Shown one piece after another: positions 2,504-62,465 of a stretch of 64,000 nt of DNA. The notes below the pieces were generated by a model. The model did no database searches. It was not told the DNA's origin and was given only the letters and a program-made list of their open reading frames with translations. The translations under genes were made by a program, and so were the position numbers. Location of the stretch: NCBI GenBank assembly GCA_030583845.1, contig CP129478.1, positions 715,686 through 779,685 on the forward strand. Direction: 5' to 3'. Source of the DNA: Candidatus Dojkabacteria bacterium (GTDB taxonomy: Bacteria > Patescibacteriota > Dojkabacteria > SC72 > JAHDCA01). Each line of letters begins with the position of its first letter. Position 1 is the first letter of the stretch.

Positions 2504-2595
2504 AACCAGAGGTGGTTTGCAAATTTACTTTGAAAAATATACCATACTTGCTGTGAAAGTATAGAGATTACTTAACATATTTTCAATAGAAGCAG

Positions 2596-3174: not shown

Positions 3175-3180
3175 TCCTTA

Positions 3181-3800: not shown

Positions 3801-3897
3801 TTATCGGTTAAGGTTCGGCGCCCCAGTCATGGTGTCAAGAGTCTCTAGTCCTACGTTGTCACATCTACGTAATCAAAATTCCTATGCACACAAAAAG

Positions 3898-6611: not shown

Positions 6612-6784
6612 GTGTAAAGATGTAATTGTTACTGTTACGAATAAGATCCTCTGATATTCACTGTGCTATCGTGTAATAGAAAAGTCGGATATACCACAGA
6701 CATAATAATAGGTTTATGATTTTGTGAAAAGGGTATCTATGCTAACATCGAGTGTTTGCATAATTAGAGTGCGGGAAAGAAGAG

Positions 6785-7222
6785 ATGGAAAAAGTTTTCG
6801 CAATATACGATTCTATTAGAAGCTCAGAAAAACTGAATTACCTAGCGGTCGGTTTCACTACCTACTTAATAGATATTTTTTTCTATATCCTTCTGGTAAA
6901 TCTGGTAAATATAGACGCAGTTAATTCCTCGATTATTTCGTTCATTATATCTACGCTAATTAGCTATGTCTTGACTATCAGGTATGTTTTCACCAGCAGT
7001 GGTAGGAAGAAAAGATTTACACTGCCACTCTATATCGTTACCACAGCCCTCGGCGTGTTGATCACCAAGCTAATCCTTGAATACCTGACGGTAGGACTTG
7101 GCGTCCACTACCTAATATCGAAGAATATATCGATCGTGTTTATCGTGCTGTTCAACTATTTTGTGAGGAAATTTTTTATTTTCAGAAAGAACTCTGAGAT
7201 TCTTACAGATATGACAGAATAG
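6785..7222 (+). CDS. GtrA-family membrane protein (putative lipid-linked sugar translocase)
   Basis: 145 aa with four transmembrane helices. The KLNYLAVGFTTYLID start and the C-terminal RKFFIFRK are typical of the GtrA family (PF04138). Confidence 0.75.
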   Translation: MEKVFAIYDSIRSSEKLNYLAVGFTTYLIDIFFYILLVNLVNIDAVNSSIISFIISTLISYVLTIRYVFTSSGRKKRFTLPLYIVTTALGVLITKLILEYLTVGLGVHYLISKNISIVFIVLFNYFVRKFFIFRKNSEILTDMTE

Positions 7223-7231
7223 ATTCAATTA

Positions 7232-9310: not shown

Positions 9311-9377
9311 TGGTTGCTCTTAACCCAGCATCGTATATGATTGTATGCAAAATTAAAATAATTAATGGAAGGTAAAC

Positions 9378-11171
9378 GTGAGCTATATTGCTAGATTAAG
9401 CCGAAATGCAGTTCGATATTTGAGGGCGCATGGGTTGAAAGCAAGTGCGCGAAAATCTAAGTCGGTATTAGATAGGTGGCTGGGTGTAGGAACAGATATT
9501 GTTGATATAACTCAAAGTAAGTACAAAGATTGGGTAAATGAAGTAGAGTCGAAAAATACGCAGGTGGCTGCTGTTGCGCAAGATATAAAAATATCGATCC
9601 TTATGCCTGTGTATAATGTCTCACCCAATTACCTTGTTGAGGCTGTTGACTCGATAAAGACCCAGAGTTATACGAATTGGGAGCTATGTATTGTTGATGA
9701 TGCTTCGACGAATAGTGAGATCCCCCCACTCATCGAGAAACTAGAGGCAGAAGATGAAAGGGTAAAGGTGCAATTCTCTCCAGTGAATAGGCATATCTCC
9801 GAAACCACCAATACTGCGTTCGACCTGTCTACAGGTAGCTATCTGCTCCTGATGGACAATGATGACCTGATTGCTCCTGGAGCACTTGAAGAGCTTGTTG
9901 TGGGGATAGAGGCAAATCCGGGGGCGGATCTTATATATTTCGACGAAGATAAGTTAGATGTGTCCGGCGCCAGGGTAGAACCATTTTTCAAGCCTGGCCC
10001 ATCGCCAGAGTTCCTGCTATCGATGATGTATCCTACACACGCACTTTACAGCAGAGATATATTTGAGAAAGCAGGTAAGCTCAGGAAAGGATATGAAGGT
10101 AGTCAAGACTATGATCTCTGTCTTAGAGTCTTTGATCTTACAGACAAGATTTATCATATCCCCAAGATATTGTATCATTGGCGTAAAATCCCAGGGTCAA
10201 CTGCTGATAGTGTAGAGCATAAGCCTTATGTTATTGCTGCAGCAAAAAGGTCAATAACAGAGTCATTTGAAAGGAAAGGATATAAGGCAGAAGTTATTGG
10301 CGATAACTATCCCTTCAAAGCGAATATTGAGATAAAAGGCAATCCACAGGTTGACATTATAATCCCAACTAAAGATAAGAAGGGACTTCTGAGCAGATGT
10401 GTTGAGTCAATTATAGAAAAAAGCAGCTATGGGAATCTCAAAATCCATATTGTAGATAACAACTCAGAAGAAGAGGAGACGCTGGAATATTTGGAGGAGA
10501 TTCAAGAAAGGGATAACAGAGTAAAGGTAGCCGAATATAGCAAGCCGTTCAACTTCTCAGCGATAAATAACTGGGCTGTTAAGCAGTCAGTAGCTGACTA
10601 CATACTCTTCCTTAATAACGATACAGAAGTTATAGAGCCTCGTTGGATAGAAGAGATGTTAATGTGGGCTCAGATGGAAAAAATTGGCGCTGTTGGGGCA
10701 AAGCTGCTATTCCCGGATCATACAATCCAACATGCTGGGGTCATTCTAGGGCTCGGGCCGGATGTTAATGATGGTCATAGACCTGTTGCCGCACATGCTT
10801 TTTACAAAGAGAGAGAAGGAAGTCCTCGTGCATTTAATCAGATGAACCTAGTTCGAAACTATAGTGCAGTAACTGGTGCATGTATGATGATAAAACGCAC
10901 CAAATTCGATGAAGTAGGAGGATTTGATGAGGAGAACCTTAAGGTTAATTATAATGATGTTGACTTATGCCTTAAGCTTCTTCAGGCCGGCTACCGTAAT
11001 GTATATACAGCACATGCAAGGCTTTTCCACCATGAGTCTGCTTCTAGGATCAAGGAGCCTCCAAAAATGGAAACCGAATTCATGAGAGATAAGTGGAAAA
11101 AGTACATTGAAAACGACCCTTACTACAACCCTAATTTCGCTCGAAACACCGTGCATTCTTTCATAATATAG
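9378..11171 (+). CDS. Bifunctional glycosyltransferase with two tandem GT2 (GT-A) domains
   Basis: The first domain is ISILMPVYNVSP...CIVDDASTN. The second is VDIIIPTKDKKG...IHIVDNNSEE. Each has a DxD-type motif (LMDNDD, LNNDTE). Confidence 0.8.
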   Translation: MSYIARLSRNAVRYLRAHGLKASARKSKSVLDRWLGVGTDIVDITQSKYKDWVNEVESKNTQVAAVAQDIKISILMPVYNVSPNYLVEAVDSIKTQSYTNWELCIVDDASTNSEIPPLIEKLEAEDERVKVQFSPVNRHISETTNTAFDLSTGSYLLLMDNDDLIAPGALEELVVGIEANPGADLIYFDEDKLDVSGARVEPFFKPGPSPEFLLSMMYPTHALYSRDIFEKAGKLRKGYEGSQDYDLCLRVFDLTDKIYHIPKILYHWRKIPGSTADSVEHKPYVIAAAKRSITESFERKGYKAEVIGDNYPFKANIEIKGNPQVDIIIPTKDKKGLLSRCVESIIEKSSYGNLKIHIVDNNSEEEETLEYLEEIQERDNRVKVAEYSKPFNFSAINNWAVKQSVADYILFLNNDTEVIEPRWIEEMLMWAQMEKIGAVGAKLLFPDHTIQHAGVILGLGPDVNDGHRPVAAHAFYKEREGSPRAFNQMNLVRNYSAVTGACMMIKRTKFDEVGGFDEENLKVNYNDVDLCLKLLQAGYRNVYTAHARLFHHESASRIKEPPKMETEFMRDKWKKYIENDPYYNPNFARNTVHSFII

Positions 11172-11254
11172 TCGGACTGCTTCTTGACTTGAAATTAGAA
11201 GGTAAATTCATGTATTGTGGTAGGAGATAAAATATACCGCATTTAACAACAGAT

Positions 11255-13789
11255 ATGAAGAAGTTTTTTCTGCTTGGAGCCTTTGTTGCAACTTTATTCA
11301 CTATTGGAGCCTTAGATAATAAGTTCTCTCTTGATGTGTTAGCCTCGAGAGATGATATTGCTAGTAGGGCATCGGTAGAAGAAATGCTCTCGCGAGGAGA
11401 GTACTCCTCAAAAAGAGTAAGGGTTGTGTATAAAGATGATCTCGAGAAGCGTGGAGAGGACGGATTCTTCAAAGTAGTTTCAACAGTAACCGTACATGCA
11501 AACGGAAACGACTCTGACTACCTCGCAAACACCGCTCAACAGAAAGAAAATGTTGGCGATACGCTCCTTGAACTAATGGAAGACCCAGAAGTTGCCTATG
11601 CAGCTCCTGACTACTTAGGCAAAATTGCAGCATGGACAGATAACGGCACCCAAGCATATCCAGGTGACTATGACGTCACAGGCCCTACATTTAACCAGTG
11701 GTACTACAACTCCGGCAAAGTCAAAGAGATGTGGCATGATCAGGGATGTCCAGGTGGCGCATCGTGCGGTGGTGATTCATCGGTGGTAGTAGCTGTAATC
11801 GATACCGGCTTGGCATACGGTGCATTCGATGATGACACTGGTGACGGATTTACAGAGAATAACTTCCTAGCAGTTGCCGATGATGTTCCAAATCTATATG
11901 TGAATGCAGGCGAGACAGCAAGCAACGGGATGGATGATGATTGTAATGGTGTGATCGATGACGCACACGGCATGGACACCTTCGCTTTTGCAGAGCTTGA
12001 GATTACAGACATAGTAGCAACCGAAAGTCTCTCAGAACGAACATGCAACGGTATGACCCCTGTGGATTTTTCTGGTACATCGAATACTTTTAGGCGAAAG
12101 CCTGGTCATCCTGTCGATACATATGGTCACGGTACATTTGTGACCGGCTTGATCGCAGGAGGTGTAGATAATGGTGGGGATACAGTATCGCCTGCATTTA
12201 ATGTAAGTATAATGCCACTTGCTGCTTCAATAAATACTACCAACAACACCCATACCTCGCAGACATATGATGAGAGCGATTATCATCTTTTCTGGATGGC
12301 AGATGTACAAACGGCGATTGAGTACGCAGGTGTAAACGGTGCTGACGTTGTAAATATGAGTATCGGTGGATTTCCGTTTGACCAGGTGTTCCAGGATCAG
12401 ATTGATTATTGGTATGGAGAGGGTATGGTTTTTGTAGCTGCTTCTGGAAATGATTCGACATCAGGATCTATGCAGGCTGTGAGTTACCCAGCTGCATTCG
12501 ACAACGTTCTTGCCGTGGGTGCAGTTAATGCTGATAACACAAGGAGTGATTACTCAAATGGAGGTAGCAACCTCGACCTCGTCGCATATGTAGGTGAAGG
12601 AGGAGCCGCAGGTACGGCTGCATATCAGGAAACACTTACCTGTTACGGTTGTACTAGTGCCGGTGATGGAGGAGGTGTATTTACAGGCACAGCGACGGAT
12701 GTGTCTATAGGTACAAGCTTCGCTGCACCACAGGTGGCAGCGGCAGCGGCGATTATTAAGAGTAATAACCCAACTATGACAGCAAGTAATATTGAGTCTA
12801 TATTGTTGATGTCAGTCCAGGACATTACTAGCTATGGTGTCGGTAGAGATAATACCACGGGGTATGGGGTGTTAGATTTTCAGCTAGCTAACGACTACCA
12901 TTATTACATTGATTCTACTCTATACCAGAATGGTGGGAGGACTAGCAAACCAGTTGCATCAGCAGAGTTTAACTCAAGGTTTTATCAGGCTATAAAAGGA
13001 TTTTCCACTAACTTCGTGTATTTAAGGAGTACAGCTGACGGAGTATTTGATAATAGTGAGGCTGCAGAGGATTGGGTTCAAATTCCAGGGCAGACGCCTG
13101 AGCAGATAAATCTGGTTGCATATGATCCAGGGGATGGTTTAAAGCTATACATGACTGTAAAAGGTAATAGTGGAAGCATCTATGTTAGATATACTTCAAA
13201 TGGATCGACTTGGACAGATTGGACAGAAAATGGCGGCCTTACAAGCACAACGATTTCCTCGACAGTATTTAATTCAAGGTTGTTCCAAAGTATTCGCGGC
13301 ATTTCAACAAACAATATCTACGTAAGAAGTAGTGGTGATGGGTTATTTGACGGGTTGGCGGATGGATCTTCACCTGACACTTTGGAGAACTGGACTACCT
13401 TAACGGGACAGACACCATCTGTGCCAGAGATTGCTGCATTTGACGGCGAAATATATATGACTGTAAGAGGTAATAGTTCAAGTATATTTACGAGGAGTTC
13501 AAGCGATGGAGTCACTTGGGGCGATTGGACTCAGAACGGCGGATTTACTTCGGCAACCCCTTCTATGGTATCCTTTGATGGGAGGTTATTCCAGTCGGTT
13601 AAAGGCAATTCCACGAATTATCTGTTCATCCGTTACAGTAATGATGGCATAACTTGGTATCCTTGGGAGCGAAGGACTGGTACTTCTCCTCAACGTACCA
13701 ATATTTCCTATTTCTCTGTTACAGATGAATTGTTTGAAACAGTAATCGGCAATAGTGGGTACATATTCTTAAGGACTTACACCTACTAA
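11255..13789 (+). CDS. Secreted subtilisin-like serine protease (S8) with C-terminal six-bladed BNR/Asp-box beta-propeller
   Basis: Signal peptide MKKFFLLGAFVATLFTIGA. Catalytic triad contexts VVAVIDTGL (Asp), HGTFVTGLIAG (His) and GTSFAAPQVAAAAA (Ser). About six repeats of ~48 aa carry S-x-D-G-x-T-W Asp-boxes (SNGSTWTDW, SSDGVTWGDW, SNDGITWYPW). Confidence 0.85.
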   Translation: MKKFFLLGAFVATLFTIGALDNKFSLDVLASRDDIASRASVEEMLSRGEYSSKRVRVVYKDDLEKRGEDGFFKVVSTVTVHANGNDSDYLANTAQQKENVGDTLLELMEDPEVAYAAPDYLGKIAAWTDNGTQAYPGDYDVTGPTFNQWYYNSGKVKEMWHDQGCPGGASCGGDSSVVVAVIDTGLAYGAFDDDTGDGFTENNFLAVADDVPNLYVNAGETASNGMDDDCNGVIDDAHGMDTFAFAELEITDIVATESLSERTCNGMTPVDFSGTSNTFRRKPGHPVDTYGHGTFVTGLIAGGVDNGGDTVSPAFNVSIMPLAASINTTNNTHTSQTYDESDYHLFWMADVQTAIEYAGVNGADVVNMSIGGFPFDQVFQDQIDYWYGEGMVFVAASGNDSTSGSMQAVSYPAAFDNVLAVGAVNADNTRSDYSNGGSNLDLVAYVGEGGAAGTAAYQETLTCYGCTSAGDGGGVFTGTATDVSIGTSFAAPQVAAAAAIIKSNNPTMTASNIESILLMSVQDITSYGVGRDNTTGYGVLDFQLANDYHYYIDSTLYQNGGRTSKPVASAEFNSRFYQAIKGFSTNFVYLRSTADGVFDNSEAAEDWVQIPGQTPEQINLVAYDPGDGLKLYMTVKGNSGSIYVRYTSNGSTWTDWTENGGLTSTTISSTVFNSRLFQSIRGISTNNIYVRSSGDGLFDGLADGSSPDTLENWTTLTGQTPSVPEIAAFDGEIYMTVRGNSSSIFTRSSSDGVTWGDWTQNGGFTSATPSMVSFDGRLFQSVKGNSTNYLFIRYSNDGITWYPWERRTGTSPQRTNISYFSVTDELFETVIGNSGYIFLRTYTY

Positions 13790-13839
13790 TTGCTTCACTT
13801 AGCGATTGGATATTTATGCAACGTATTCTAACTCGTGAT

Positions 13840-14601
13840 CTAGCCGATCCAGTCGGCAATCTGAGAGAGTGTTTCGTATGGTGGCATTTTTAACTTCCAC
13901 TCATCTGGTTTTTTTGATGCGACGGAGATTATATAAGTTATCTCATATGGATCTCTTCTATAATTCTCATATATAATCTCCAAACCATTATCTCGTGCAA
14001 GGTACCTAAGCGCAGTTGGTGTGAACCTCCAGTAATCTCGGAAAGTCTCCTGCTCGTGCTGTTGCTGAATAAAAGGTACAACTGTGATGACAACATCTCT
14101 CGACATCATAGCCATATTCTTATAAGCCTTTTTGACTTGGTAGATATGCTCAAGAATTGTATGGTTGAATACAGTATCAAACCTGTTCTTAAGCGATGTG
14201 TTCAGATTTTGCTCGAGGTCGAGAGTAATCTCGTCATCCCGGTCAGGCATGTGTTGGCTGTAGTTTGTGATTGTATAAGAGCTTGCCTTGGGAAAGTAGT
14301 TTCTGTAGTAATCGCCATCCTTATCTTTATCCTCCCAGCCGGATATGTTAACTATATCTCCTCCGAACAGGTGAGAAAATCTCCTGAGCTCCTGGTTGGA
14401 CCAGGTTCTTACTGGGTCTGAAAATGGTTCGTATAACCTTATTGCCTCATCTTCAGTAAAATCTGGTATATGTGGAGTGACCTTGTATTTAAACCGGCGT
14501 ACACCATTTGAAAGTTTTATCGCTAAACGCACAGGCCTTCTGTTGAGGAGATCTATTGCTTCATTGTAGCTGATTCTTGGCTTCACGGTTGTTTTACACA
14601 A
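13840..14601 (-). CDS. Hypothetical protein, class I methyltransferase-like fold (degenerate motif I)
   Basis: 253 aa. Motif II-like FDTVFNHTILEHI and a weak motif I (GDIVNISG). It is convergent with the S8 protease gene. Confidence 0.35.
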   Translation of the reverse strand: MCKTTVKPRISYNEAIDLLNRRPVRLAIKLSNGVRRFKYKVTPHIPDFTEDEAIRLYEPFSDPVRTWSNQELRRFSHLFGGDIVNISGWEDKDKDGDYYRNYFPKASSYTITNYSQHMPDRDDEITLDLEQNLNTSLKNRFDTVFNHTILEHIYQVKKAYKNMAMMSRDVVITVVPFIQQQHEQETFRDYWRFTPTALRYLARDNGLEIIYENYRRDPYEITYIISVASKKPDEWKLKMPPYETLSQIADWIG

Positions 14602-14761
14602 TTACGAGTGTATAGGTTACAATGGTCACTATTGTAGCATAGATGCCTGTGAAATTGTTCGGGATGCTCACACTCAATTATCCCTTGGAGGCAGAGTTTA
14701 GTGAACATGATACTTTAAAGCCTTATCAACAGTTGCGTAGTAGCGTTAACGCCCTTGAGGA

Positions 14762-15964
14762 CTAGGAATTGAGATCGAGGAAAGATAAGTAGTTATTGGT
14801 GACGGAAGTGATATTAAATTGAGCCACGCTCTTCCGTGAATTCGACAATAATTTAGTATACAGCTCTTGGTCTTGCATAATGCGGCTCATATTTTCTGAC
14901 AGGCCTTCTATATCTCCAACTGGTGATAGGAGGCCATTATATCCTTCTGATACAATATCTTCTACACCGCCATTTGCTGTTGAAACTACAGGGAGAGAAC
15001 TGTTCAATGCCTCAATGTAAGCCAATCCAAAACCCTCATGGTAGGAGGAAAGTACAAAGCAGTGAGACTTGGCCATTATTTGATATTTCTCTTTATCGCT
15101 TACATATCCCAATAGATGTACCCTTGAACTAACGCCTAGTTCATCGATAAGTCGCAGCAGATGTCCTTTCTCCGGCCCGTCACTGATTATTAGTAGCTGA
15201 CATTCACTGGTTTGTGGGAGAATTGCAAACGCCTTTATCATTATGTCATAGCCCTTTCTTGTGTCGAGCCTACCAAGTGCAACAAACGTAAAGAGGTCGA
15301 ACTTATGATCTCTTAAGTTAGTCAGAGTCGTGAAAGGGATTCCTATATGACCGACTTCGACCTCTTTTTTGACTCCGTAAAATTTGTATATTTTCTCCCG
15401 CACATCTGTTGATATAGCATTGACCTTGTATGCGTTGTTTATAATCCGGCGCGCTGCAACTTTAAGGAGTAAGTGTTTGTGTGGAGAGTATCCTTCAGTT
15501 GGCTTATATATGTCTCCACCTATGACAGTCACATAGTGTCGCTTATTAAACAGGATTGATACTATTGCTCCAACAAAGCCAGAAGGGAACGTAAATACGC
15601 TGTAAACGCGTGAGTATTTGTTTCTCAATGAAAGCATTATCCCTTTCGGGATAGCAAAAAAAGGATATGCAAGAAGCAGTAGGATACCGCTTGTCGCCCT
15701 ATTCTTTCGTGGGAGGAACTTTCCAATTCGGTGAACTTTTACATTTCCGAATTGTTCTGAGATAAAAGGAGGAAATTTATAATTCCCGAAAGTAACCAGG
15801 TCAACCTCTACATCTTGATGGCTATGTGCTATCTCGTACAGCAAGTCTCTGGCAAAGCATCCCCCGCCGCCTCCAAGGGGAGGGTATTCGTAGCAAAACA
15901 TCAAGACCCTTCTGTTTTTGCTGCTCTCTGCGGAGGTTTCTTTTATTAATTGTCTTTCAGTCAA
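14762..15964 (-). CDS. GT4 family glycosyltransferase
   Basis: EGFGLAYIEALNSSLPVVSTANGGVEDIV is the classical GT4 EX7E region. The N-terminus has the GGGG phosphate-binding loop. Confidence 0.85.
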   Translation of the reverse strand: MTERQLIKETSAESSKNRRVLMFCYEYPPLGGGGGCFARDLLYEIAHSHQDVEVDLVTFGNYKFPPFISEQFGNVKVHRIGKFLPRKNRATSGILLLLAYPFFAIPKGIMLSLRNKYSRVYSVFTFPSGFVGAIVSILFNKRHYVTVIGGDIYKPTEGYSPHKHLLLKVAARRIINNAYKVNAISTDVREKIYKFYGVKKEVEVGHIGIPFTTLTNLRDHKFDLFTFVALGRLDTRKGYDIMIKAFAILPQTSECQLLIISDGPEKGHLLRLIDELGVSSRVHLLGYVSDKEKYQIMAKSHCFVLSSYHEGFGLAYIEALNSSLPVVSTANGGVEDIVSEGYNGLLSPVGDIEGLSENMSRIMQDQELYTKLLSNSRKSVAQFNITSVTNNYLSFLDLNS

Positions 15965-16088
15965 GGGGATATGATGATAATTTGTGAAGTAATCTTGCTA
16001 TAAACCTACTCATAAATAACCTACCTAACACTGAGTTTCGATGGTTTGACTTATTGATCTTATCATCCTCATAGTGTAAATTCAAAGC

Positions 16089-16979
16089 ATGAAAAAAGTC
16101 AAAGCTCATAATGTAGGAATAACGGTAGTTATCCCGGCGTACAATGAACAAGGCGCGATATTAGGGACAATCGAATCCATTGCAGAAATACTAAGAAATT
16201 ACGCCGATCCGTACGAGATCATAGTCATTAATGACGGCTCAACAGATGATACATTGACATTGCTATCTAAGGCCAAGCTAGAGCATTTCATATTGATTAA
16301 CCATAAGAGAAATATGGGCTACGGTTGCTCACTTAAAAGAGGGATCAGGGAGGCTATGTACGATAAGATTATTATTACAGATGCCGATGGTACTTACGAC
16401 AATACAAGGATACCTGAAATATCAGACTTACTGAGCGATTACCGAATGGTTGTTGGGGCAAGAACTCTCAATAGAGAGAATATTCCGCTAGTTAGGAAGC
16501 CTGCTAAATGGTTCCTGACCTGGTTTACATCTGCACTAATGCAAGCGAAGATAATTGATCTTAACTCGGGGCTTAGAGGGTTTTATCGCTCGGACATGGA
16601 GCACCTATATCCTTTACTCCCGGATCAGTTTTCGTTCACGACTACTATAACGATTGCATATTTGAGTGAACACAAATCGGTCTACTACTTGGATACTAAG
16701 TATTTCAAGCGTGATGGCAAATCGAAAATCAGGCCTATTAACGACTTCTTCGGGTTTATTTTTAAGATTGTTAACACGATTATGTACTTTGAACCGTTCA
16801 GAATATTCCTGCCTTTGGCTCTGTTGTCCTTTATTGGCACTGTTATCTCACTGTCTTACGATCTGTTTGTTTTGCGCAATCTGACTGATAAAACTGTCTT
16901 AGCATTCGTATTCACTTTGAACTTCCTTATGCTTGGCTTTATTGCGCAGATGATAGTCAAAAGGACTAATACTAATTAA
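16089..16979 (+). CDS. GtrB/ArnC-like polyprenyl-phosphate glycosyltransferase (GT2 with two C-terminal TM helices)
   Basis: VVIPAYNEQG...VINDGSTDDT GT-A domain. The 296-aa protein has two C-terminal transmembrane helices, which is the GtrB/DPM synthase architecture. Confidence 0.8.
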   Translation: MKKVKAHNVGITVVIPAYNEQGAILGTIESIAEILRNYADPYEIIVINDGSTDDTLTLLSKAKLEHFILINHKRNMGYGCSLKRGIREAMYDKIIITDADGTYDNTRIPEISDLLSDYRMVVGARTLNRENIPLVRKPAKWFLTWFTSALMQAKIIDLNSGLRGFYRSDMEHLYPLLPDQFSFTTTITIAYLSEHKSVYYLDTKYFKRDGKSKIRPINDFFGFIFKIVNTIMYFEPFRIFLPLALLSFIGTVISLSYDLFVLRNLTDKTVLAFVFTLNFLMLGFIAQMIVKRTNTN

Positions 16980-54873: not shown

Positions 54874-55272
54874 TTACTCGCTGATTTTCAGCTTCACCAA
54901 GAGTCGTTCTGCCTGCTCAGGGTCAATCTTCTCAGCTGGGGTATCTATTATCTCCATGAAGTCTTTCCCGATATTGGGAATCACATGAATGTGAGCGTGA
55001 GCAATCTGGTTGCCTGCAATCATAGAATAGCTAAACTGTGATCCTGTTTTCTCTTTGTGTGAGATGGCTGTTTTGCGCACGATATCCATATATTCCTGGT
55101 AAAGCTCTGCCGGCACATCCCATACCTGTGGGTAATGTTCCTTCGGGATGATCAGTGTGTGTCCCTCAGCCTTCGGGAATGCATCTAGCATGACGATAAA
55201 GTTGTCGGTCTCATATAGGCGGTAGGATGGGATTTCGTTTTTTGCGATTTTGCAGAATATGCAGTCTGGCAT
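54874..55272 (-). CDS. HIT-family (histidine triad) nucleotide hydrolase
   Basis: HTLIIPKEHY and the histidine triad AHAHIHVIP. 132 aa. Confidence 0.85.
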   Translation of the reverse strand: MPDCIFCKIAKNEIPSYRLYETDNFIVMLDAFPKAEGHTLIIPKEHYPQVWDVPAELYQEYMDIVRKTAISHKEKTGSQFSYSMIAGNQIAHAHIHVIPNIGKDFMEIIDTPAEKIDPEQAERLLVKLKISE

Positions 55273-55321: not shown

Positions 55322-56074
55322 ATGTTTCAAACCATCCTTCTCGCTACAACCATAGTTAGCCTGCCCGCACTATTTGCCGGGCTGATTGTCTCAAGCAAAC
55401 CGCTTGCAAATAAGAGCAGCATCAACTACCTCATCTCTTTCTCGGCTGGCACGCTACTTGGAGGTGCACTCTTCCATCTACTACCAGAAGGGGTCGAGAT
55501 GCTTGATCCAACTACATTCTCGCTAATATTCGCAATTACGATAATTGCCATACTGGTGCTTGAGAAATTCATACATTGGCACCACTGTGGGCTTGCGCAT
55601 GACGAAGAGCATATGCATGAGCATCGGGAGGTTTCGGTCACATATCTCTCGCTTATTGGGGATATCTTCCACAATTTCTTAGACGGCTTGATTATTGCGG
55701 GTGCTTTTATTGCAAATCCGGCGCTAGGGGTGTCGACCACTATCGCAGTGGCTGTGCACGAAATTCCGCAAGAGATCTCTGACATATCGATAATGATTCG
55801 CGGTGGATTTTCAAGGAAGAAAGCGATTGTGGCAAATATCATTGTGGCACTCTCTGCGATCGCAGGAGGAATGATCGGATGGCTATATATCAATAGCATT
55901 GATGGCTTGAGAGGATATCTATTCCCAGTCGCTGCCGGGATGTTTCTCTATATCGCATTGACCGATCTACTCCCCGAGATTCGCAATGAGAATAGGCCAG
56001 TCAGGTTCGGCACTTATGCTTTACTGGCAGCTTTAGGGCTACTGCTAATGTGGTGGTTGGCAACATTAGAGTAA
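55322..56074 (+). CDS. ZIP-family (ZupT-like) divalent metal transporter
   Basis: A His-rich loop (HWHHCGLAHDEEHMHEH). The conserved HEIPQEISD segment lies in a transmembrane helix. About 8 TM helices. Confidence 0.75.
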   Translation: MFQTILLATTIVSLPALFAGLIVSSKPLANKSSINYLISFSAGTLLGGALFHLLPEGVEMLDPTTFSLIFAITIIAILVLEKFIHWHHCGLAHDEEHMHEHREVSVTYLSLIGDIFHNFLDGLIIAGAFIANPALGVSTTIAVAVHEIPQEISDISIMIRGGFSRKKAIVANIIVALSAIAGGMIGWLYINSIDGLRGYLFPVAAGMFLYIALTDLLPEIRNENRPVRFGTYALLAALGLLLMWWLATLE

Positions 56075-56113
56075 CCAGTGTAACTACAGATTAAGATCTC
56101 ACTATAAGTCATT

Positions 56114-56123
56114 TACACCTGTA
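56114..56123 (+). promoter_or_regulatory. cop box / BlaI-CopY-type operator half-site pair TACAccTGTA
   Basis: It matches TACAnnTGTA and lies about 100 nt upstream of the first gene of the copper operon (56222). Confidence 0.5.
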
Positions 56124-56138
56124 TGGCTCGGTGGTAAC

Positions 56139-56156
56139 CTACTACAAGTGTAGTAG
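56139..56156 (+). promoter_or_regulatory. Second cop box inside a perfect 8+8 palindrome CTACTACAagTGTAGTAG
   Basis: It contains TACAagTGTA (TACAnnTGTA) and lies 66 nt upstream of 56222. Confidence 0.55.
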
Positions 56157-56221
56157 TGGACTTCGCTTGAATGATACGATACTGTTTCTGTGTGAAGTCC
56201 TAAATTTTCAAAAAACCGTTC

Positions 56222-57634
56222 ATGGCAAGCAAAGGCAAGAAGAATGTAGCTAAGACAAAAAAGCAGAGCTCACGCAGCAAAGAACAGAAATACGAGACAT
56301 GTGAGTACTATGTTGATGGGATGCACTGTGCTGCTTGCGAGCTGTTGATTGAAAAGAAGATATTAAAAAAATATGAAAATGTGGGCTCGGTCGATGCGTC
56401 GTTGGCTGATGGAGTGGTAAGAGTTAGCTATCAAGGCACGGCTCCAGATCCTGAGAAAATGAGCCAGCTCTTTAAAGAAGATAAATATTACTTCAGTACT
56501 ACTCCTGAGGATATTATCCATGAGAAGAAGACATTCCAGTTTGATAAGTCTGGAAACCTTCAGATTGATTCAAATGCATTGAAAAGAAGCGTGGCGATTA
56601 TCGCTATGGCCGGTGGCTTTTTACTTCTCTTTTTCGGCATTGAGGAGATGCTGCAAAGCAGCGGACTCCTTAGTACAGGGATAGAGTCATTGATGGAGCC
56701 TGGAGTCGATTGGACTCTTTCGGCATACTTCGTAGTTTTGATTACTGGACTGATTGCTGGTTTCTCAAGCTGTGCATCATTAGTGGGAGGCCTCCTGCTT
56801 TCGATGAGCAAACAGTGGAACGCCCTTAACAACAAGAGCAATGATACAAAGTTGAGGGCTATTCCATATGTTATGTTCAACGTCGGTAGGCTGATTGCCT
56901 TCCCACTTTTCGGTGCTTTGCTTGGATTGCTCGGTAGCAGATTTGGACTTTCGCTTGAGATGAGCTCGCTGCTTGTACTTGCAGTCGGAGTGTTGATGTT
57001 TGCACTTGGTGGTCAGATGCTTGGATGGAAGAGGTTCCGTGGTGTCTCGATACGAGCACCGAAGTTTGTGACAGATAGGTTTGTTGATGAATCGAAGTTC
57101 AACGGAAAGGTGTTTCCATTCCTGGTTGGTATGATGACGATTTTCCTGCCTTGTGGATTTACAGCCTTGGCGATGACAGCGGCAGTGCTTTCGGGTGATC
57201 CGTTGACTGGTGCACTTGTGATGTTGCTGTTTGCACTTGGTACACTTCCAGCTTTGATCGGAATCTCAGTATTAAGCATATACTCGGATAAGAGCGTCAG
57301 ATTTGGAAGCTATTTTACAAAAGTTGCTGGCTATGTAGTGGTCTACTTTGGACTGGCAAGCATAAATGCGCAATTCAAAGTGCTTGGTGTGCCAAGCCTA
57401 TCATCGGTTACCGATATCTACAGCTTGATTGAATTCGGCGTGTTTCTAACGATGTTTGCGACTCTGATTACATTGATAATCCGCAATCTTGGGTATGTGA
57501 AGCGAGTTGATGGGGCTATGGCGAAGATTTACAGATTGATGCTGGCATTTATATACCTGCTTCTATTTGTAAGTTTTATGGTGAGTTACAATTTAATAAT
57601 GCCGTGGGAATACGATTTTACTAAGCTAAGTTAA
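56222..57634 (+). CDS. Heavy-metal-associated (HMA) domain fused to a DsbD_2/CcdA-like transmembrane domain
   Basis: The N-terminal HMA is YYVDGMHCAACELLIEK (GMxCxxC). The membrane domain has conserved intramembrane Cys residues (FSSCASLVGG, IFLPCGFTAL). Confidence 0.6.
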   Translation: MASKGKKNVAKTKKQSSRSKEQKYETCEYYVDGMHCAACELLIEKKILKKYENVGSVDASLADGVVRVSYQGTAPDPEKMSQLFKEDKYYFSTTPEDIIHEKKTFQFDKSGNLQIDSNALKRSVAIIAMAGGFLLLFFGIEEMLQSSGLLSTGIESLMEPGVDWTLSAYFVVLITGLIAGFSSCASLVGGLLLSMSKQWNALNNKSNDTKLRAIPYVMFNVGRLIAFPLFGALLGLLGSRFGLSLEMSSLLVLAVGVLMFALGGQMLGWKRFRGVSIRAPKFVTDRFVDESKFNGKVFPFLVGMMTIFLPCGFTALAMTAAVLSGDPLTGALVMLLFALGTLPALIGISVLSIYSDKSVRFGSYFTKVAGYVVVYFGLASINAQFKVLGVPSLSSVTDIYSLIEFGVFLTMFATLITLIIRNLGYVKRVDGAMAKIYRLMLAFIYLLLFVSFMVSYNLIMPWEYDFTKLS

Positions 57635-57642
57635 TAAATAAT

Positions 57643-58050
57643 ATGAATATAAAAATTGAAAGAGGAACATTGGTGGTATTGGGTATTTTCGTCGCGGTGC
57701 CTATGTTGTTCATACTGCTTCTGGCATTTGCCAAAGGACCAGCTGATAGCGGGTCAAATCCTACAGGAGATGCGCAGGCAGATTCCGAGGTGTCAATTTC
57801 GGTAAGCGGTGGTGATATTAGCCCTTCGAAGATCCAGATCCCTGCCGGCGAAAATGTACTATTGAAGGTAAAGAATGATGGGGCATCAGGATGTACAAGC
57901 TCGCTTATCAGCCGTAGCCTGTTCAAGGGACCACTCAGTTTGGGACAAGAGGGTGACGAGGTAGAGCAGATAATTAGGGCGGAGGAACCAGGGAATTACA
58001 CTATCACTTGTTGGATGGGAATGGTAGGTATGGATGTAGAAGCAATTTAA
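57643..58050 (+). CDS. Cupredoxin-like domain protein (membrane-anchored), probable metal-binding accessory protein
   Basis: N-terminal transmembrane helix. The beta-sandwich SPSKIQIPAGENVLLKVKNDGASGCTSS...ITCWMGM matches PF13473-type proteins found beside P1B ATPases. Confidence 0.55.
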   Translation: MNIKIERGTLVVLGIFVAVPMLFILLLAFAKGPADSGSNPTGDAQADSEVSISVSGGDISPSKIQIPAGENVLLKVKNDGASGCTSSLISRSLFKGPLSLGQEGDEVEQIIRAEEPGNYTITCWMGMVGMDVEAI

Positions 58051-58069
58051 GCTAACGGTCGTAAAGAAA

Positions 58070-58279
58070 ATGGCCACCTATCTTATCGAAGGCATGCACT
58101 GTGAGTCATGTGCAAAGCTAATAGGCATGGAGCTTGAAGATAGAGAGCTACTTGGCTGTACTGTTGACCTTGGGAATAGCACAATTACAGTTCCCGAATC
58201 ACTCGCAAATCTGATGGACGATATCGCCGAGGCAATTAGCGCTGCAGGTGAGTACTCACTGGGCGACAAAATTAACTAA
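58070..58279 (+). CDS. copZ: Copper chaperone CopZ-like HMA protein
   Basis: 69 aa. [18 protein letters not shown] (GMHCxSC). Confidence 0.75.
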
Positions 58280-58296
58280 AATTACATTTTGATCAG

Positions 58297-60717
58297 ATGC
58301 TAATCAAAGAATCATACCCAATTGTCGGGATGCACTGTGCCTCTTGCAAGAGTCTAATTGAAAGACTTGTCTCAAAAGTTGAAGGTGTGAAGGAGGTAGC
58401 TGTAAATTATGCTGCTGAAAAGATGACAGTGAGTTATGACAATGATGTAGCAAGCTTAGATGATATTAAAAAGGCAGTTGCGAGCGGCGGGAGCTATCAG
58501 TTAATTCAAAATGTGAGCGGCGAAGTTATTCTTGCTTCTCCCCCTGAAGTCGAGAAAGCTCATATGTCAGGGCACCATCATCGGCATGAGCACAGCCAAC
58601 ATACGACCAAGATGTCAGCAGGTGAGCACGCAGCCCATCTCGAGGAGTTAAAACTTAGCGAGTATAACCATCTGAAGAGGACAGTAGCATGGGTCGGAAT
58701 CGCTTCGATACCATTCTTCCTGTACATGGTAGCAATGTTTTTGGTGAGCTTTTCGATAATTGAGTTTCCTATGGATATGCTTGGGATGGTAGAGACTGGG
58801 ATGACTGAGATTTCCATTTTGTGGTTAATCCAATTTGCACTTGCCACCCCGATCGTGTTTATAGGTGGTAAGCAGTTTTTCCAGAGCGCATGGAGCGCGT
58901 TAAAAGTCCGCAGTGCAAATATGGATACCTTAATTGCTTTGGGCACTCTTACTGCGTGGGTTTACTCAACGATCGTACTATTTGCGCCGCAACTTTTTGA
59001 AGGAGTCACGGGTGAGCTAGAGCTGTTCTATGAAGCGGCGGTGTTTATTACATTTTTCATACTGCTAGGTAGATTGCTTGAAATGCGCGCACGAAATCGC
59101 ACGCGCGAAGCGGTTAAGAACCTCATTAAATTGCAGGCAAAGGAAGCTATCGTGCTTCGCAATGGTGAAGAGGTCACAGTGCCGATTGAGCAGGTGGCTT
59201 TGGGAGATACAGTAATAGTAAAGCCGGGAGGCAAGGTCCCTGTAGACGGCAGGATAACTAATGGCGCAACTACGATCGACGAGTCAATGGTTACTGGTGA
59301 ATCGCTACCAGTCGAGAGGGCTGTAGGAGATGTCGTAATTGGCGCGACAATAAATAAAACAGGGAGCATCCAATTTGAAGCCACCAAAGTAGGTGGCGAT
59401 ACAGTGCTTGCTCAGATCATTAGGCTTGTAGAAGATGCACAAGCTACACAAGCACCGGTTCAGAAGCTTGCGGACAAAATCTCTTCAATATTCGTCCCAA
59501 TTGTCATTGTGATTGCACTCGCTGCATTTCTATTCTGGATCTTTGTCGCTCCGCAGCTAGGCATTATCGGTGTTGGTGCAGATGCTACACAGCTTGCGGT
59601 TTATGTTCTCATCTCTGTGTTAATAATAGCCTGCCCTTGTGCACTTGGCTTGGCAACTCCAACTGCAGTGATGGTTGGTACAGGGAAGGCTGCTACTAGC
59701 GGCATACTGGTGAAGGATGCTCAAGCTCTTGAGACTGCATGTAATATCAGTACGATAGTTTTCGACAAGACCGGAACGATTACGAAAGGAGAGCCAGAAG
59801 TTGTATCGCACTATCTAGCCGACAGTGTAGATAAAGAGAATATCTACAAGGTCTTCTACTCAGTCGAGAGCAAATCAGAGCATCCGCTTGCAGAGGCAGT
59901 TGTTGAATTTATAAAAGATGACCGTGCTTCAGTCAGCAAGGTTGATGTTGAGCAATTTAAGATTGTGGAGGGTCGCGGGGTCGAAGCGATGGTAAATGGA
60001 AAATCTGTGCTGATAGGGAATCCAAAGATGATGTCGGAAAATTCGGTATCCACTGAAGGGGTTCAGGAGAGGCTTGGACAGATGCTAGAAGAGGGCAATA
60101 CTGTCATCGTAGCAGCTATAGATGCGGAGGCGGTGGCTATCTTTGCTATTGCAGATAAAGTTAAGGATAGCTCGGCTAGTGCTGTTGAAAGGCTGCACAG
60201 CATGGGGATTAAGACGGTGATGCTAACTGGAGACAATGAGAAAACAGCAAAGAAAATCGCAGACGAAGTGGGTATCGACGAAGTTATAGCAGAAGTCCTA
60301 CCGGAGGAGAAGCTGGATATCATAATTAAACTGCAGAGCGATCTGAATAGGCGAAAAGGCGAGGTGCTAGCAATGGTTGGAGATGGGATAAATGATGCTC
60401 CTGCACTGGCACAGGCCGATATCGGCATCGCGATGGGTACTGGCACAGATGTGGCAATTGAATCAGGTGACATCGTGCTTGTACACGGTACGTTGGACAA
60501 AGTAGTCGACTCAATCAAGATATCAAAGGCTACTATGAAGGCGATAAAGCAAAATCTCTTTTGGGCATTTGGATACAATGTCGTGGCGATCCCAGTAGCT
60601 GCAGGACTACTGTTTCCAATACTTCTTTCGCCAATTATCGCAAGTGCTGCGATGGCCTTGAGCTCAGTATCCGTGGTGGCTAATAGCTTGCGGTTGAGAT
60701 ATATCCGCACATCATAA
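58297..60717 (+). CDS. copA: P1B-type copper-translocating ATPase
   Basis: N-terminal [15 protein letters not shown]. His-rich [14 protein letters not shown]. The TM6 CPC is [19 protein letters not shown] phosphorylation site. [10 protein letters not shown] hinge. 806 aa. Confidence 0.95.
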
Positions 60718-60734
60718 ATTAAACTATAAAAATT

Positions 60735-61097
60735 ATGGCTAGAGTGATTCTAGGAGAACTAGAGCAGAAAATAATGCATGTAATGTGGGAATCGAAGGGG
60801 TCGTTGAAACCATCCGAGGTTCTTGAAAGAATAGGTGAGGGGTATGCATATACGACAATCATGACCTCCTTGGTACGACTCTCGGGTAAGGGACTACTAA
60901 AGCGTGAGAAGGTTGGGAAAGCGTATAAGTACAGCTGCGCTAAGAGCAAAGAAAGTTTCTTGAAAAAGAACCTTTCAAAAGTATTTTCGACGCTGTTCGA
61001 TGATTACGGGGATCTAGTAATTTCGCAGTTTGTAGATACTCTGGCAGACGACCCGGAAAGCATCCGTAAACTAAAGAAAGCAATAGATGAAAAGTAG
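60735..61097 (+). CDS. copY: BlaI/MecI/CopY-family winged-helix transcriptional repressor
   Basis: 120 aa. EQKIMHVMWESKGSLKPSEVLERIGEGYAYTTIMTSLVRLSGKGLL fits the Penicillinase_R family. Confidence 0.8.
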   Translation: MARVILGELEQKIMHVMWESKGSLKPSEVLERIGEGYAYTTIMTSLVRLSGKGLLKREKVGKAYKYSCAKSKESFLKKNLSKVFSTLFDDYGDLVISQFVDTLADDPESIRKLKKAIDEK

Positions 61098-62067
61098 CTA
61101 CAAAGAGCTAGTAAAAATCGAAAGACACTCATTTATCGGATTGGTGGTGATAATAGTGGCATATGCTACGCTGCTGCTGGCGTTATTTCAGGCTGTGAAG
61201 GTGCATTATTCGATCGAGCTGTACAATTCGCTGTACCTTCTGGGCATACAATGCATGGATTTTGCTCGCAATCTTCTGCTTGCAAGACTCGGAAGCTCAT
61301 CAATACATGTAATCGTCCTTGCAGCCGCACTTATATTCCTCTTCAGAGGGATTACGATTGCAATAATTAACCAAGTACGCACATACAGCTTTGTGAAGTC
61401 GCTCGAGACGGCAGGATTTAATGGCAGATATTTCAGGATTAGATCGGATGATCCATTGGCTTTCACCTATGGACTTTTCAATCCAAAAATCTATATCTCC
61501 GACTGGTATCTCGAGAAATTAACAAAGGATGAGATCGAGGCTGTCATACTGCATGAGGAATCGCATATTAACAGTAAAGACAACCTGAAAAAGAGCCTGT
61601 TAAGATTGTTCCAATTTTCACTCCCGGGGTTATCAACCAGGATAATTCGAGAGCTGAACTGGGAGAAGATTTCTGAAGCGAAGGCAGATGCACATGTGGT
61701 TGAGAGGCTCGGCTCAAATCAGCCGCTTCTTTCGGCGATGCTGAAAGTCTCAAATAGCACATTTAAGTTCAACAGTAAATTCTCGCTTAACTATTTTTTT
61801 GAGGACTCAAATGTCGGGAGGGTCGATTTTCTTACTGATATAATCTCTCTCAAGGTAAACTACAGGAAATTGCTTCTGTTTGCCTTCCTACCACTGCTGA
61901 TGGTCTGGTTTATATATGCTGAACGCTCTCTAGTATTCTCAGCATCAGATAATAGTGAAGGTCATGTGGTTAATATGGTGCCTGGTACCTGTACAGATAC
62001 TGTACTACCGGGATATAAGTCAGATGACAAGCCGTTTTCCCCAATTATTAATCAGTCCTTTAGATAA
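61087..62067 (+). CDS. M56-family (BlaR1-like) membrane zinc peptidase lacking a C-terminal sensor domain
   Basis: HExxH VILHEESHINSKD after N-terminal transmembrane helices. 326 aa. It overlaps the copY-like stop by 11 nt. Confidence 0.75.
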   Translation: MKSSYKELVKIERHSFIGLVVIIVAYATLLLALFQAVKVHYSIELYNSLYLLGIQCMDFARNLLLARLGSSSIHVIVLAAALIFLFRGITIAIINQVRTYSFVKSLETAGFNGRYFRIRSDDPLAFTYGLFNPKIYISDWYLEKLTKDEIEAVILHEESHINSKDNLKKSLLRLFQFSLPGLSTRIIRELNWEKISEAKADAHVVERLGSNQPLLSAMLKVSNSTFKFNSKFSLNYFFEDSNVGRVDFLTDIISLKVNYRKLLLFAFLPLLMVWFIYAERSLVFSASDNSEGHVVNMVPGTCTDTVLPGYKSDDKPFSPIINQSFR

Positions 62068-62111: not shown

Positions 62112-62465
62112 ATGTCGAAAGGGATGCTTGCCGGATTTTCTATGTTTGCCGTGATTGTCGGTGCGCTGGGCGTGTACCTGATTGTCTCTGCACCGCAGAA
62201 TGATGATGTGCTTGGTTCTGAGGAAAGGGGCATTAGCATGGCAGAGGTGGCGCTGCACAATAGTAAGGAAGATTGTTGGACAGTAATTGATGGCAAGGTG
62301 TATGAGCTAAATAGCTTCATACTCTCACACCCGGGTGGGGATAAGATTTTGGAAGCGTGCGGTGTTGATGCGACCGAGAAATTCAACACTCAAGGTGGTG
62401 AGGGTTTTCACTCTGCTGCAGCCAAGGCAATACTCGCCGGTTTGCAGATAGGTACGCTGGAATAA
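62112..62465 (+). CDS. Membrane-anchored cytochrome b5-like heme-binding domain protein
   Basis: N-terminal transmembrane helix. HNSKEDCWTVIDGKVYELNSFILSHPGG matches the cyt-b5 HPGG motif. Confidence 0.7.
   Translation: MSKGMLAGFSMFAVIVGALGVYLIVSAPQNDDVLGSEERGISMAEVALHNSKEDCWTVIDGKVYELNSFILSHPGGDKILEACGVDATEKFNTQGGEGFHSAAAKAILAGLQIGTLE

Follow-up and report, generated by a model that had tools for sequence, protein, structure and literature searches.

The window examined here is a stretch of 64,000 nucleotides (nt) of the genome of a Candidatus Dojkabacteria bacterium (contig CP129478.1, positions 715,686 to 779,685 of the forward strand), and positions below are counted from its first letter. 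Near its end it contains a run of copper-related genes together with a gene pair coding for a repressor of the BlaI/MecI/CopY family and a short membrane zinc protease of the M56 (BlaR1) type. The six same-strand open reading frames (ORFs) listed in a preliminary description of this DNA, from an HMA-DsbD_2 membrane protein to the protease, were recovered with their coordinates and domains, all of them on the forward strand (Table 1), and the HEESH site of the protease (residues 156-160) and its length of 326 amino acids (aa) were likewise found as described. Reading of 61087-61097 also bore out the 11-nt overlap of the repressor and protease genes, the ATG of the latter lying within the sequence ...GAT GAA AAG TAG that ends the former. 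The gap between copA and the repressor gene is only 17 nt, and therefore leaves no space for a promoter ahead of the repressor gene. A seventh gene, for a cytochrome b5-like (Cyt-b5) protein, starts 44 nt past the protease gene and is probably the last of the unit, because close relatives (L001-L005 among the related loci, cited here by number) keep it in the same position.

Table 1. Coordinates of the genes, residues and upstream elements of the copper operon and its surroundings in the window
Feature	Position	Strand	Length	Description
HIT-family gene	54874-55272			Upstream neighbour
ZIP-family metal permease gene	55322-56074			Upstream neighbour
Promoter-like block	56101-56117	+		aCTATAAGTcATTTACA; TATAAG (-10-like) and TTTACA (-35-like)
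Box 1	56114-56123	n/a		TACACCTGTA; overlaps the TTTACA hexamer, without outer CTAC/GTAG arms
Predicted operator palindrome	56139-56156	n/a		CTACTACA-ag-TGTAGTAG (8-2-8, perfect); CTACTAC-N4-GTAGTAG
HMA-DsbD_2 membrane protein	56222-57634	+	470 aa	PF13386 (3e-30), PF00403 (2e-7)
Cupredoxin-fold protein (Cupredoxin_1)	57643-58050	+	135 aa	Membrane-anchored; PF13473 (1.4e-11)
CopZ-like HMA metallochaperone	58070-58279	+	69 aa	MHCESC; PF00403 (2.5e-6)
CopA, P1B-1 Cu(I)/Ag(I) ATPase	58297-60717	+	806 aa	TIGR01511, TIGR01525
BlaI/MecI/CopY-family winged-helix repressor (Penicillinase_R)	60735-61097	+	120 aa	PF03965
Repressor Q98-F99	61026-61031			Candidate cleavage site
Short M56 (BlaR1-type; M48/M56) membrane zinc protease	61087-62067	+	326 aa	PF05569, PF01435
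Protease C56	61252-61254			Candidate sensor residue
Protease HEESH	61552-61566			Catalytic site
Protease E197 and D201 (ExxxD)	61675-61689			Catalytic site
Protease C302	61990-61992			Candidate sensor residue
Cytochrome b5-like heme-binding protein	62112-62465	+	117 aa	Transmembrane (TM) segment at N-terminus; PF00173 (1.8e-19)
Long ORF	~62546 to past the window end (64000)			N-terminal TM segment; contains MPRKLSRTSRNRKNIRIAATFIFTAAFFALAFWLF

Apart from Cyt-b5, all the products of the operon's cargo genes have features of copper proteins, namely three HMA CxxC domains, a cupredoxin fold and a Cu-type ATPase, and the cargo does not include a DsbA-like gene. CopA scores 612 bits against TIGR01511 (cut-off 397) and 659 bits against TIGR01525, and its translation contains an HMA domain at the N-terminus, a His-rich stretch, and the motifs CPC, YN (FGYNVVAIP) and MxxSS (MALSSVSVV), transmembrane motifs that mark Cu(I)/Ag(I) exporters in the P1B classification. 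In the HMA-DsbD_2 protein a cytoplasmic CxxC metal-binding domain is fused to a CcdA/DsbD-like thiol-transfer membrane domain; among copper-linked loci this protein is the steadiest neighbour of the repressor-M56 pair. The translated cupredoxin has no His, and its candidate Cu(I) ligands are C84 and the residues of C123-W-M125-G-M127 (C-x-M-x-M). This arrangement presumably resembles the Cu(I) site of pneumococcal CupA, a resemblance that a sequence search of PDB did not support; the best match there was another cupredoxin at E = 0.5, and a CupA-like identity was rejected as lacking sequence support.

The repressor was described at first as CopY-like, an identity that did not hold. It matches PF03965 at 82.1 bits (gathering threshold 22.6; residues 6-119 on model positions 1-115) and stays far below the CopY/TcrY equivalog TIGR02698, with 41.5 bits against a cut-off of 121.95. 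It has a single cysteine, C68, which is absent from the relatives P0007 and L006, and lacks the CopY motif CxCx4CxC, a motif that is likewise missing from all 78 relatives found in the surveyed loci; the alignment of the relatives contains no conserved cluster of Cys, His or Met residues either. Judged by these features, the repressor is not a CopY. Its nearest solved relatives in a PDB sequence search are MecI, BlaI and Rv1846c of Mycobacterium tuberculosis. The bond cut in BlaI and MecI is of the type of N101-F102 in MecI, and residues Q98-F99 of the repressor align opposite it; F99 and V100 are invariant, and across the family the Q98-F99 position reads [H/Q/S]-[F/M].

A comparison is provided by members of the same clade that lack an adjacent protease gene (L103 7468-7812; L104 6959-7312; L123 44-331). 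Their repressors are 39-52% identical to that of the window and carry cysteine clusters, N-terminal CHCCQQKCH or CNCKSTKCH and internal FACTCL, FNCNCL or YACACL, and two of the three (L103, L123) adjoin HMA-DsbD_2. At least two CxC motifs were present in 0/105 distinct M56-adjacent repressors and in 2/10 non-adjacent ones (Fisher p = 0.007). This pattern is what one expects if metal is sensed either by the repressor, when it is Cys-rich and has no protease, or by the protease, when the repressor is Cys-poor, and it makes the M56-less repressors a built-in evolutionary control. The clusters (CxCCx3C or CxCx4C at the N-terminus, CxC inside the chain) are placed unlike the C-terminal CxCx4CxC of CopY, and by their sequences these proteins may represent a convergent direct metal sensor.

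The protease matches PF05569 only marginally (33.9 bits, gathering threshold 31) and PF01435, the M48 family of the same clan, at 36.9 bits against 20.3. The family profile (A5) nevertheless places BlaR1 first in PDB (E 3.3e-9), and none of the catalytic residues H156, E157, H160, E197 and D201 varies among 84 sequences. An AlphaFold2 model built from 114 sequences has a predicted local distance difference test score (pLDDT) of 84.7 and a predicted template modelling score (pTM) of 0.81, and contains two helices of 49 residues (5-53 and 57-105) arranged as a hairpin, the protease domain, a third helix (259-288), and a tail of low confidence. Foldseek matched this model first to BlaR1 of Staphylococcus aureus (8exq and 8exp, probability 1.00, E 1e-3) and then to Ste24 (M48), with a TMq for BlaR1 of only 0.40, reflecting a poor global superposition. 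The hydrophobic segments (16-34, 76-94 and 261-279) and the basic N-terminus suggest a topology in which the N-terminus and the catalytic domain are cytoplasmic, while residues 35-75, with the tip G53-I-Q-C56, and 289-326 lie outside. The phmmer matches of the protease to designer PPR proteins were discarded as artefacts, produced by repeats and low complexity in the N-terminal helices.

No penicillin-binding domain was found in the protease: the chain ends 38 residues past the last TM helix and has no PF00905 match, and the score against NF000326 (blaR1_generic) is 19.1 bits versus 400. The preliminary description called it sensor-less, which is correct as regards the penicillin-binding sensor. 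This absence is the norm of the family, since all 80 genome-derived relatives are short (211-469 aa), and is thus not distinctive; moreover, a candidate cysteine sensor is present. An exhaustive search returned 2,675 M56 representatives at E <= 1e-3, and the best 150 of the 2,675 are 205-371 aa long. In a published survey about 6% of some 15,000 M56 proteins carry a transpeptidase domain, and 96% are encoded within five genes of a BlaI-like gene (Kurtz et al., PMC13492132).

Upstream of the run, the perfect palindrome CTACTACAagTGTAGTAG reported earlier was confirmed; it is the sole inverted repeat within 56050-56230, and the only site in the 64-kb window that fits CTACTAC-N4-GTAGTAG with zero mismatches. 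An upstream alignment was made with the relatives of the same gene order (L001/L002 and L005), whose proteases are 57-60% identical to that of the window. The arms CTACTAC/GTAGTAG are invariant in L002 and L005, and the central four bases vary (AAGT, AGAG, ATGA). Two cop boxes (TACAnnTGTA) had been proposed here, one as the core TACAAGTGTA at 56143, inside the palindrome, and the other as box 1. Both sequences are present, but conservation was seen for the palindrome alone, and there not for the cop box as such: because of the variable centre, the orthologous sites, TACAgaGGTA and TACAtgAGTA, depart from the consensus, and the fit of the window's palindrome to it is probably incidental. Of box 1 and its surroundings only TTTAC, which belongs to an invariant block, CTATAAGTnATTTAC, is kept in the counterparts of the box, TTTACAAGTTTC in L002 and TTTACTTCATTA in L005, neither of them a cop box; box 1 is at best a weak lineage-specific site, or due to chance.

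Across the window TACAnnTGTA occurs five times against 1.14 expected, a number reached in 2/100 shuffles. The sites outside the upstream region were rejected as members of a regulon, the one at 62688 (TACAGTTGTA) lying within the long ORF that runs off the window, the one at 49879 being coding, and the one at 34229 being intergenic but adjoining unrelated genes. The sequence CTACTACNNNNGTAGTAG, with up to three mismatches, is found nine times in the whole window against 1.6 expected (nine reached in 0/100 shuffles); two of these matches are or overlap the palindrome, and one, at 56039, is in the end of the ZIP gene.

The promoter-like block precedes the palindrome, and the columns CTATAAGT.ATTTAC are invariant across the window, L001/L002 and L005. 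The TTTACA hexamer stands 17 nt before TAACCT (56135-56140; TAACCT or TAATCT across the alignment), a -10-like sequence that abuts the palindrome. Since a sigma-70 consensus scan of 56060-56220 called no promoter, the promoter elements, assigned by eye, are putative, and they would place the operator at or just past the core promoter.

The same type of palindrome recurs before related repressor genes. CTAC-N4/5-GTAG is present in 31 of 135 distinct repressor-upstream segments (23%), versus 0.2% of shuffles and 4.9% of control segments taken from these loci, some of them perhaps containing genuine sites; a strict cop box is present in 2/135. In distant loci in which the repressor gene is the first of its unit, a related palindrome, such as gtGCTACAatgTGTAGTAtATG or ctGCTACAataTGTAGTATG, stands directly before the start codon. 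With the arms invariant and CTAC-N4/5-GTAG enriched before repressor genes, the palindrome of the window is very probably the operator of the repressor. In many loci of the Candidate Phyla Radiation (CPR) the operator-like sequence CTACAATATGTAG includes TACAAT, a good -10 hexamer, and its end is separated from the ATG of the repressor gene by 2-4 nt (L014 ~7270-7288, L043 ~7438-7456, L012, L065, L006 9984-10003, L094, L096), an arrangement which suggests leaderless, auto-repressed transcripts.

Pairs of this kind were surveyed beside cop genes in other genomes, and the linkage was found to recur across several lineages, with three different gene orders. The repressor and M56 genes overlap or are adjacent in 105 of 115 distinct related loci. 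In a neighbour-joining tree of 84 M56 proteins the protease of the window clusters with those of L002, L005, L006, L025 and L045, all of which are encoded beside HMA-DsbD_2, with or without cupredoxin, CopZ and CopA. The cop genes precede the pair in the window and in L001-L005, all of the Dojkabacteria lineage. They follow it in a second group (L006-L010, L025, L045, L094, L096, L098, L101, L105), in the first seven of which the pair is followed by HMA-DsbD_2(-cupredoxin)-CopZ-CopA. In L035, from another Dojkabacteria genome, the pair and CopZ-CopA-Cytb5 are arranged divergently on either side of a CTAC-N5-GTAG palindrome. The closest repressors from metagenomes (41-52% identity; L092, L094, L096, L098, L101, L105) are likewise found in the order repressor-M56-HMA-DsbD_2-...-CopA. 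On this comparison the repressor-M56 pair as such is generic and the clade of the window is copper-linked.

The L006 cassette (2219-16713; also in L007-L010) has the order repressor-M56-HMA-DsbD_2-cupredoxin-CopZ-CopA, with a CopA of 1155 aa, and a second P-type ATPase and a YtkA-domain gene lie further 3'. Because it adjoins genes for a serine recombinase/resolvase, a TraG/VirD4-like protein and a relaxase, the cassette of L006-L010 suggests a mobile, self-regulated resistance unit carried as cargo of an integrative element.

Upstream of the operon lie the genes of a ZIP-family metal permease and a HIT-family protein, a synteny kept in L002 and L005. The stop codon of the ZIP gene is 65 nt ahead of the palindrome, and read-through from it into the copper operon is possible because no terminator was detected between the ZIP gene and the operator. 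The Cyt-b5-like TM protein recurs in CPR copper clusters, beside CopA in L035 (3580-3972) and as a domain within a 316-aa fusion in L014 (10768-11718); that it acts as a cupric reductase or as an electron donor is conjecture. The long ORF beyond it probably codes for a large surface protein. No Rfam family and no tRNA were detected in the 54-64 kb part of the window.

The two regions of the protease predicted to be extracytoplasmic each carry a cysteine, C56 at the apex of the modelled hairpin and C302 in the disordered tail. A cysteine aligns with C56 in 78 of 84 family members, whereas canonical BlaR1 has an isoleucine (Ile87) at this position, and one aligns with C302 in all 29 CPR-like and in 14 of 15 Chloroflexota members. 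Many CPR tails, read sequence by sequence, contain M-x-C-x4-6-C-x3-C or FLC-x5-C-x3-C-H. This richness in cysteine does not separate copper-linked from unlinked CPR loci and is a feature of the clade rather than specific to copper.

The genes around these proteases are often connected with thiol chemistry. Thiol-redox and/or copper genes lie within 6 kb in 25 of 29 CPR-like loci, and many CPR loci have the order repressor-M56-DsbA-like-HMA-DsbD_2-CopZ. In 24 of 32 Bacillota loci the order is repressor-M56-DsbA-like-DsbB, or the pair stands with DoxX or DsbD_TM. Examples from Priestia, Neobacillus, Brevibacillus, Ureibacillus and other genera (L033 7302-9735; L028 7229-9840; L058 7264-9727; L051 7205-9359) have the pair directly 5' of DsbA-like and DsbB (BdbDC-like) genes, of DoxX and DsbA-like genes, or of DsbD_TM. 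This context suggests that the Bacillota pairs are a BlaIR-type regulator of the disulfide-bond machinery, undescribed so far, in cultivable Firmicutes. A second block of genes found 3' of the pair codes for proteins of ~90 aa, ~400 aa (weakly thioredoxin-like), ~425 aa (no family) and ~115 aa, and for DUF3105; it is common to WWE3, Daviesbacteria and DPANN archaea (L021 8801-12486, L072, L078, L079, L068, L041 and L035; L031, L073 and L076 in DPANN).

The common denominator of the subfamily thus appears to be extracytoplasmic thiol chemistry, into which copper would fit because Cu(I) binds thiols and copper catalyses their oxidation. A more general view would take the short M56 proteases of CPR, Chloroflexota, DPANN archaea and Bacillota as a class of extracytoplasmic thiol/copper sensors that is widespread and so far undescribed. 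In such a class the cysteine at the tip of the hairpin, paired with the tail cysteine in CPR and Chloroflexota, would bind Cu(I) or be oxidised, leading to intramembrane-proximal cleavage of the BlaI-like repressor, and the regulons would comprise DsbA/DsbB, DoxX and DsbD_2, with copper export in addition in CPR. This generalisation is tentative and on present evidence rather doubtful; if true, most 'BlaR-like' proteins would for the first time have a defined signal and defined sensor residues.

For the operon of the window, the best-supported reading is that of a copper-defence operon under a BlaI/BlaR-type, PetR/PetP-like switch, in which the repressor is proteolysed in response to copper or to copper-thiol stress; a probability of roughly 0.6 is assigned to it. 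The mechanism that we infer (binding of the repressor to the palindrome, the cleavage and its site, the nature of the signal, and the residues that sense it) would run as follows. A repressor dimer would bind the palindrome beside the core promoter and keep the whole unit off, including the repressor and protease genes. The repressor itself would have no metal site, and the translationally coupled M56 protein would cross the membrane three times, with the catalytic domain inside and the C56 hairpin and the C302 tail outside. Copper outside the cell would act on the thiols of these two cysteines, by binding of Cu(I) or by catalysed oxidation, and render the protease active. The protease would then cut the dimerisation helix of the repressor near Q98-F99, upon which DNA binding would be lost and the operon derepressed. 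Because repressor and protease would be co-induced, repression would be restored after the removal of copper. The trigger may be either coordination of Cu(I) or oxidation of thiols; the Dsb-type context of the wider family points to copper-thiol or redox chemistry.

The preliminary description had preferred proteolytic derepression to the Zn/Cu exchange of CopY. The missing CopY site, the intact protease, the copper linkage and the cysteine clusters of the M56-less repressors all favour that preference. The principle of a proteolytic copper switch is not new, PetR/PetP being a precedent. New here would be an M56-type switch coupled to copper efflux in CPR bacteria, and C56/C302 as the candidate sensor.

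Several observations weigh against this interpretation. The match of the protease to its Pfam family is barely above the threshold (33.9 vs 31), and its C302-bearing tail is modelled at a pLDDT below 50. The Bacillota members, which have no copper genes nearby, keep the apex cysteine in 32/32 cases and do so without the tail; because the apex cysteine is thus retained beside DsbA/DsbB genes in the absence of copper genes, the cysteines may, instead of binding copper, have a structural part or report the thiol-redox state. The Fisher test on the CxC motifs depends on two or three sequences. The gene order of the window is shared by only three independent sequences, so that the conservation of the operator within it concerns few lineages; since a metagenome scan with an M56 alignment of the Dojkabacteria clade (A4) found no relatives, it is documented by L001/L002 and L005 only. 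Finally, L005 (3008-6615) has the pair, HMA-DsbD_2, cupredoxin, Cyt-b5 and the operator, but neither copZ nor copA, which it lost or never had. Because L005 keeps the DsbD_2/cupredoxin part without these genes, this part, rather than the ATPase, would be the conserved core of the unit.

The last observation speaks for an explanation in which the proteolytic switch is the same and the signal is a general extracytoplasmic thiol or disulfide stress, the outer cysteines of the protease reporting the envelope's redox state, the redox repair by DsbD_2 being the primary function and copper export an addition. The Dsb-type contexts of the whole short-M56 subfamily, in Bacillota as well as in CPR loci of the order repressor-M56-DsbA-like-HMA-DsbD_2, speak for it as well, as do the apex cysteine kept with or without copper genes and the regularity of DsbD_2, the most constant neighbour of the pair. 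It accounts less well for the operon under study, where all the cargo except Cyt-b5 is of the copper type and no DsbA-like gene is present, and for the nearest clade of proteases (the window, L002, L005, L006, L025 and L045), which is uniformly copper-linked; furthermore, PetP, the relative that has been studied, requires copper. For these reasons it is considered unlikely, if still worth serious attention, and since copper is a classic cause of periplasmic thiol oxidation the two readings overlap.

It is much less probable that the repressor senses copper directly at a non-canonical site, by allostery like CopY, and that the M56 protein is secondary, serving to clear released repressor or for quality control. 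The Pfam family is common with CopY, the operator of the window happens to fit TACAnnTGTA, and the best NCBIfam match of the repressor, although weak, is CopY/TcrY; in addition, the authors of the PetRP study could not exclude binding of copper by PetR (bioRxiv 10.1101/2020.07.31.226407). However, a score so far under the CopY/TcrY cut-off, a CopY motif present in 0/78 relatives, a sole cysteine that P0007 and L006 lack, and the want of any conserved Cys/His/Met cluster speak against such a site, and it is in the M56-less relatives that cysteine clusters are found. A further point against it is that the protease is strictly co-inherited with the repressor and translationally coupled to it, with its catalytic residues intact. 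Least probable of all is a generic module standing by chance beside copper genes and acting on another target, with a palindrome unrelated to it: BlaI-M56 pairs are indeed ubiquitous in many contexts (PMC13492132), and a palindrome 65 nt past the ZIP stop codon could form an RNA hairpin at the end of the ZIP transcript, but the copper linkage recurs across orders and lineages, the 17-nt gap leaves no space for a separate promoter before the repressor gene, the palindrome is A/T-rich, lacks a T-run after it and drew no terminator call, the same palindrome type stands directly before repressor genes elsewhere, and fixed arms around a variable spacer are typical of a protein-binding site.

If the copper-triggered proteolytic switch is correct, its interest lies in the signals of a large protein group. 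About 94% of BlaR-like M56 proteases have no beta-lactam sensor, and their signals are not predictable (PMC13492132). Cyanobacterial PetP is the only sensor-less BlaR-like protease with a known signal; it is copper-responsive and does not control copper homeostasis (PMC10141476). Copper-triggered proteolysis of a repressor has so far been shown only in cyanobacteria, and not for copper defence. The locus described here would extend the idea of a copper-responsive BlaIR system to classical copper defence (CopA, CopZ, DsbD_2) in CPR, would represent a third mode of cop-operon regulation within the CopY protein family, and offers in C56 and C302 concrete, testable sensor residues. It also draws attention to a large set of uncharacterised BlaIR pairs tied to Dsb-type genes, including those of the cultivable Priestia megaterium and Neobacillus, so that tractable organisms are available for testing the hypothesis although Dojkabacteria themselves are not growable. 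The literature that was searched contained no paper on a BlaIR-type pair at a copA operon or on a link between BlaIR and Dsb, an absence that is not proof.

Among known systems the closest in design is PetR/PetP of Synechocystis sp. PCC 6803 (slr0240/slr0241), the comparison being drawn from its published description. PetR is a BlaI/CopY-family regulator without the CopY ligands (Garcia-Canas et al., bioRxiv 10.1101/2020.07.31.226407, PNAS 2021), and its degradation needs the M48/M56 protease PetP as well as copper, in vivo and likewise in extracts (bioRxiv 10.1101/2020.07.31.226407). The petP gene overlaps petR, PetP has no beta-lactam sensor, and its proposed copper ligands are two conserved Met residues in an extracytoplasmic loop that matches the loop of BlaR1 contacting the sensor domain (bioRxiv 10.1101/2020.07.31.226407). 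The window shares with this system a regulator lacking CopY ligands, a short M48/M56 protease without a beta-lactam sensor, overlapping genes, a proposed sensor placed in the extracytoplasmic loop that precedes the last N-terminal TM helix, and presumably the copper signal. The differences concern the binding site (GACN5GTC for PetR, CTACTAC-N4-GTAGTAG as predicted here), the protease (four predicted TM helices and two Met candidates in PetP; three TM helices, an apex cysteine and a Cys-bearing tail here), and the position of the pair, which here lies inside the regulated operon, unlike PetRP. PetRP governs petE, petJ and slr0601/2, that is, the plastocyanin/cytochrome c6 switch, and not copper homeostasis (2023 review, PMC10141476).

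With BlaI/BlaR1 and MecI/MecR1 of S. aureus and Bacillus licheniformis the operon shares a PF03965 repressor, an M56 protease with HExxH and ExxxD, a palindromic operator with TAC/GTA half-sites, and a Q-F dipeptide opposite the scissile N-F bond, and BlaR1 is the best structural and profile match of the protease. In contrast, BlaR1 and MecR1 have ~585-601 aa, a transpeptidase-like sensor and four TM helices, compared with 326 aa, no such sensor and three predicted TM helices here, and they control beta-lactamase or PBP2a rather than copper and thiol genes. CopY, CopR and TcrY of Enterococcus, Lactococcus and Streptococcus belong to the same Pfam family and also repress a copA-type operon with a metallochaperone. 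They carry a C-terminal CxCx4CxC and have no protease partner, whereas the repressor described here has no such site and is paired with a protease, and their cop box, TACAnnTGTA, fits the operator of the window but not those of its relatives.

The Scs (suppressor of copper sensitivity) and Dsb proteins combine thiol redox with copper tolerance. To the Scs/Dsb systems of Proteobacteria, in which DsbD-like membrane reductases and DsbA/DsbC-like thioredoxin-fold proteins are associated with copper tolerance (PMC8900818), the likeness is one of cargo only; unlike the window operon, the Scs genes are not known to be under a BlaIR-type pair. The atypical BlaIR systems, finally, comprise CenIR of Clostridioides difficile (PMC13492132), BlaIR of M. 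tuberculosis and M. abscessus, and PvmSR of Pseudomonas aeruginosa (bioRxiv 10.64898/2026.08.03.742534). They resemble the pair of the window in having an M56 protein without transpeptidase domain beside a BlaI-like repressor, and in C-terminal regions that are short and in part disordered. The genes they regulate have to do with the envelope, energy metabolism or virulence, whereas the cargo of the window's pair suggests a specific signal and the protease offers candidate residues with which it might be sensed.

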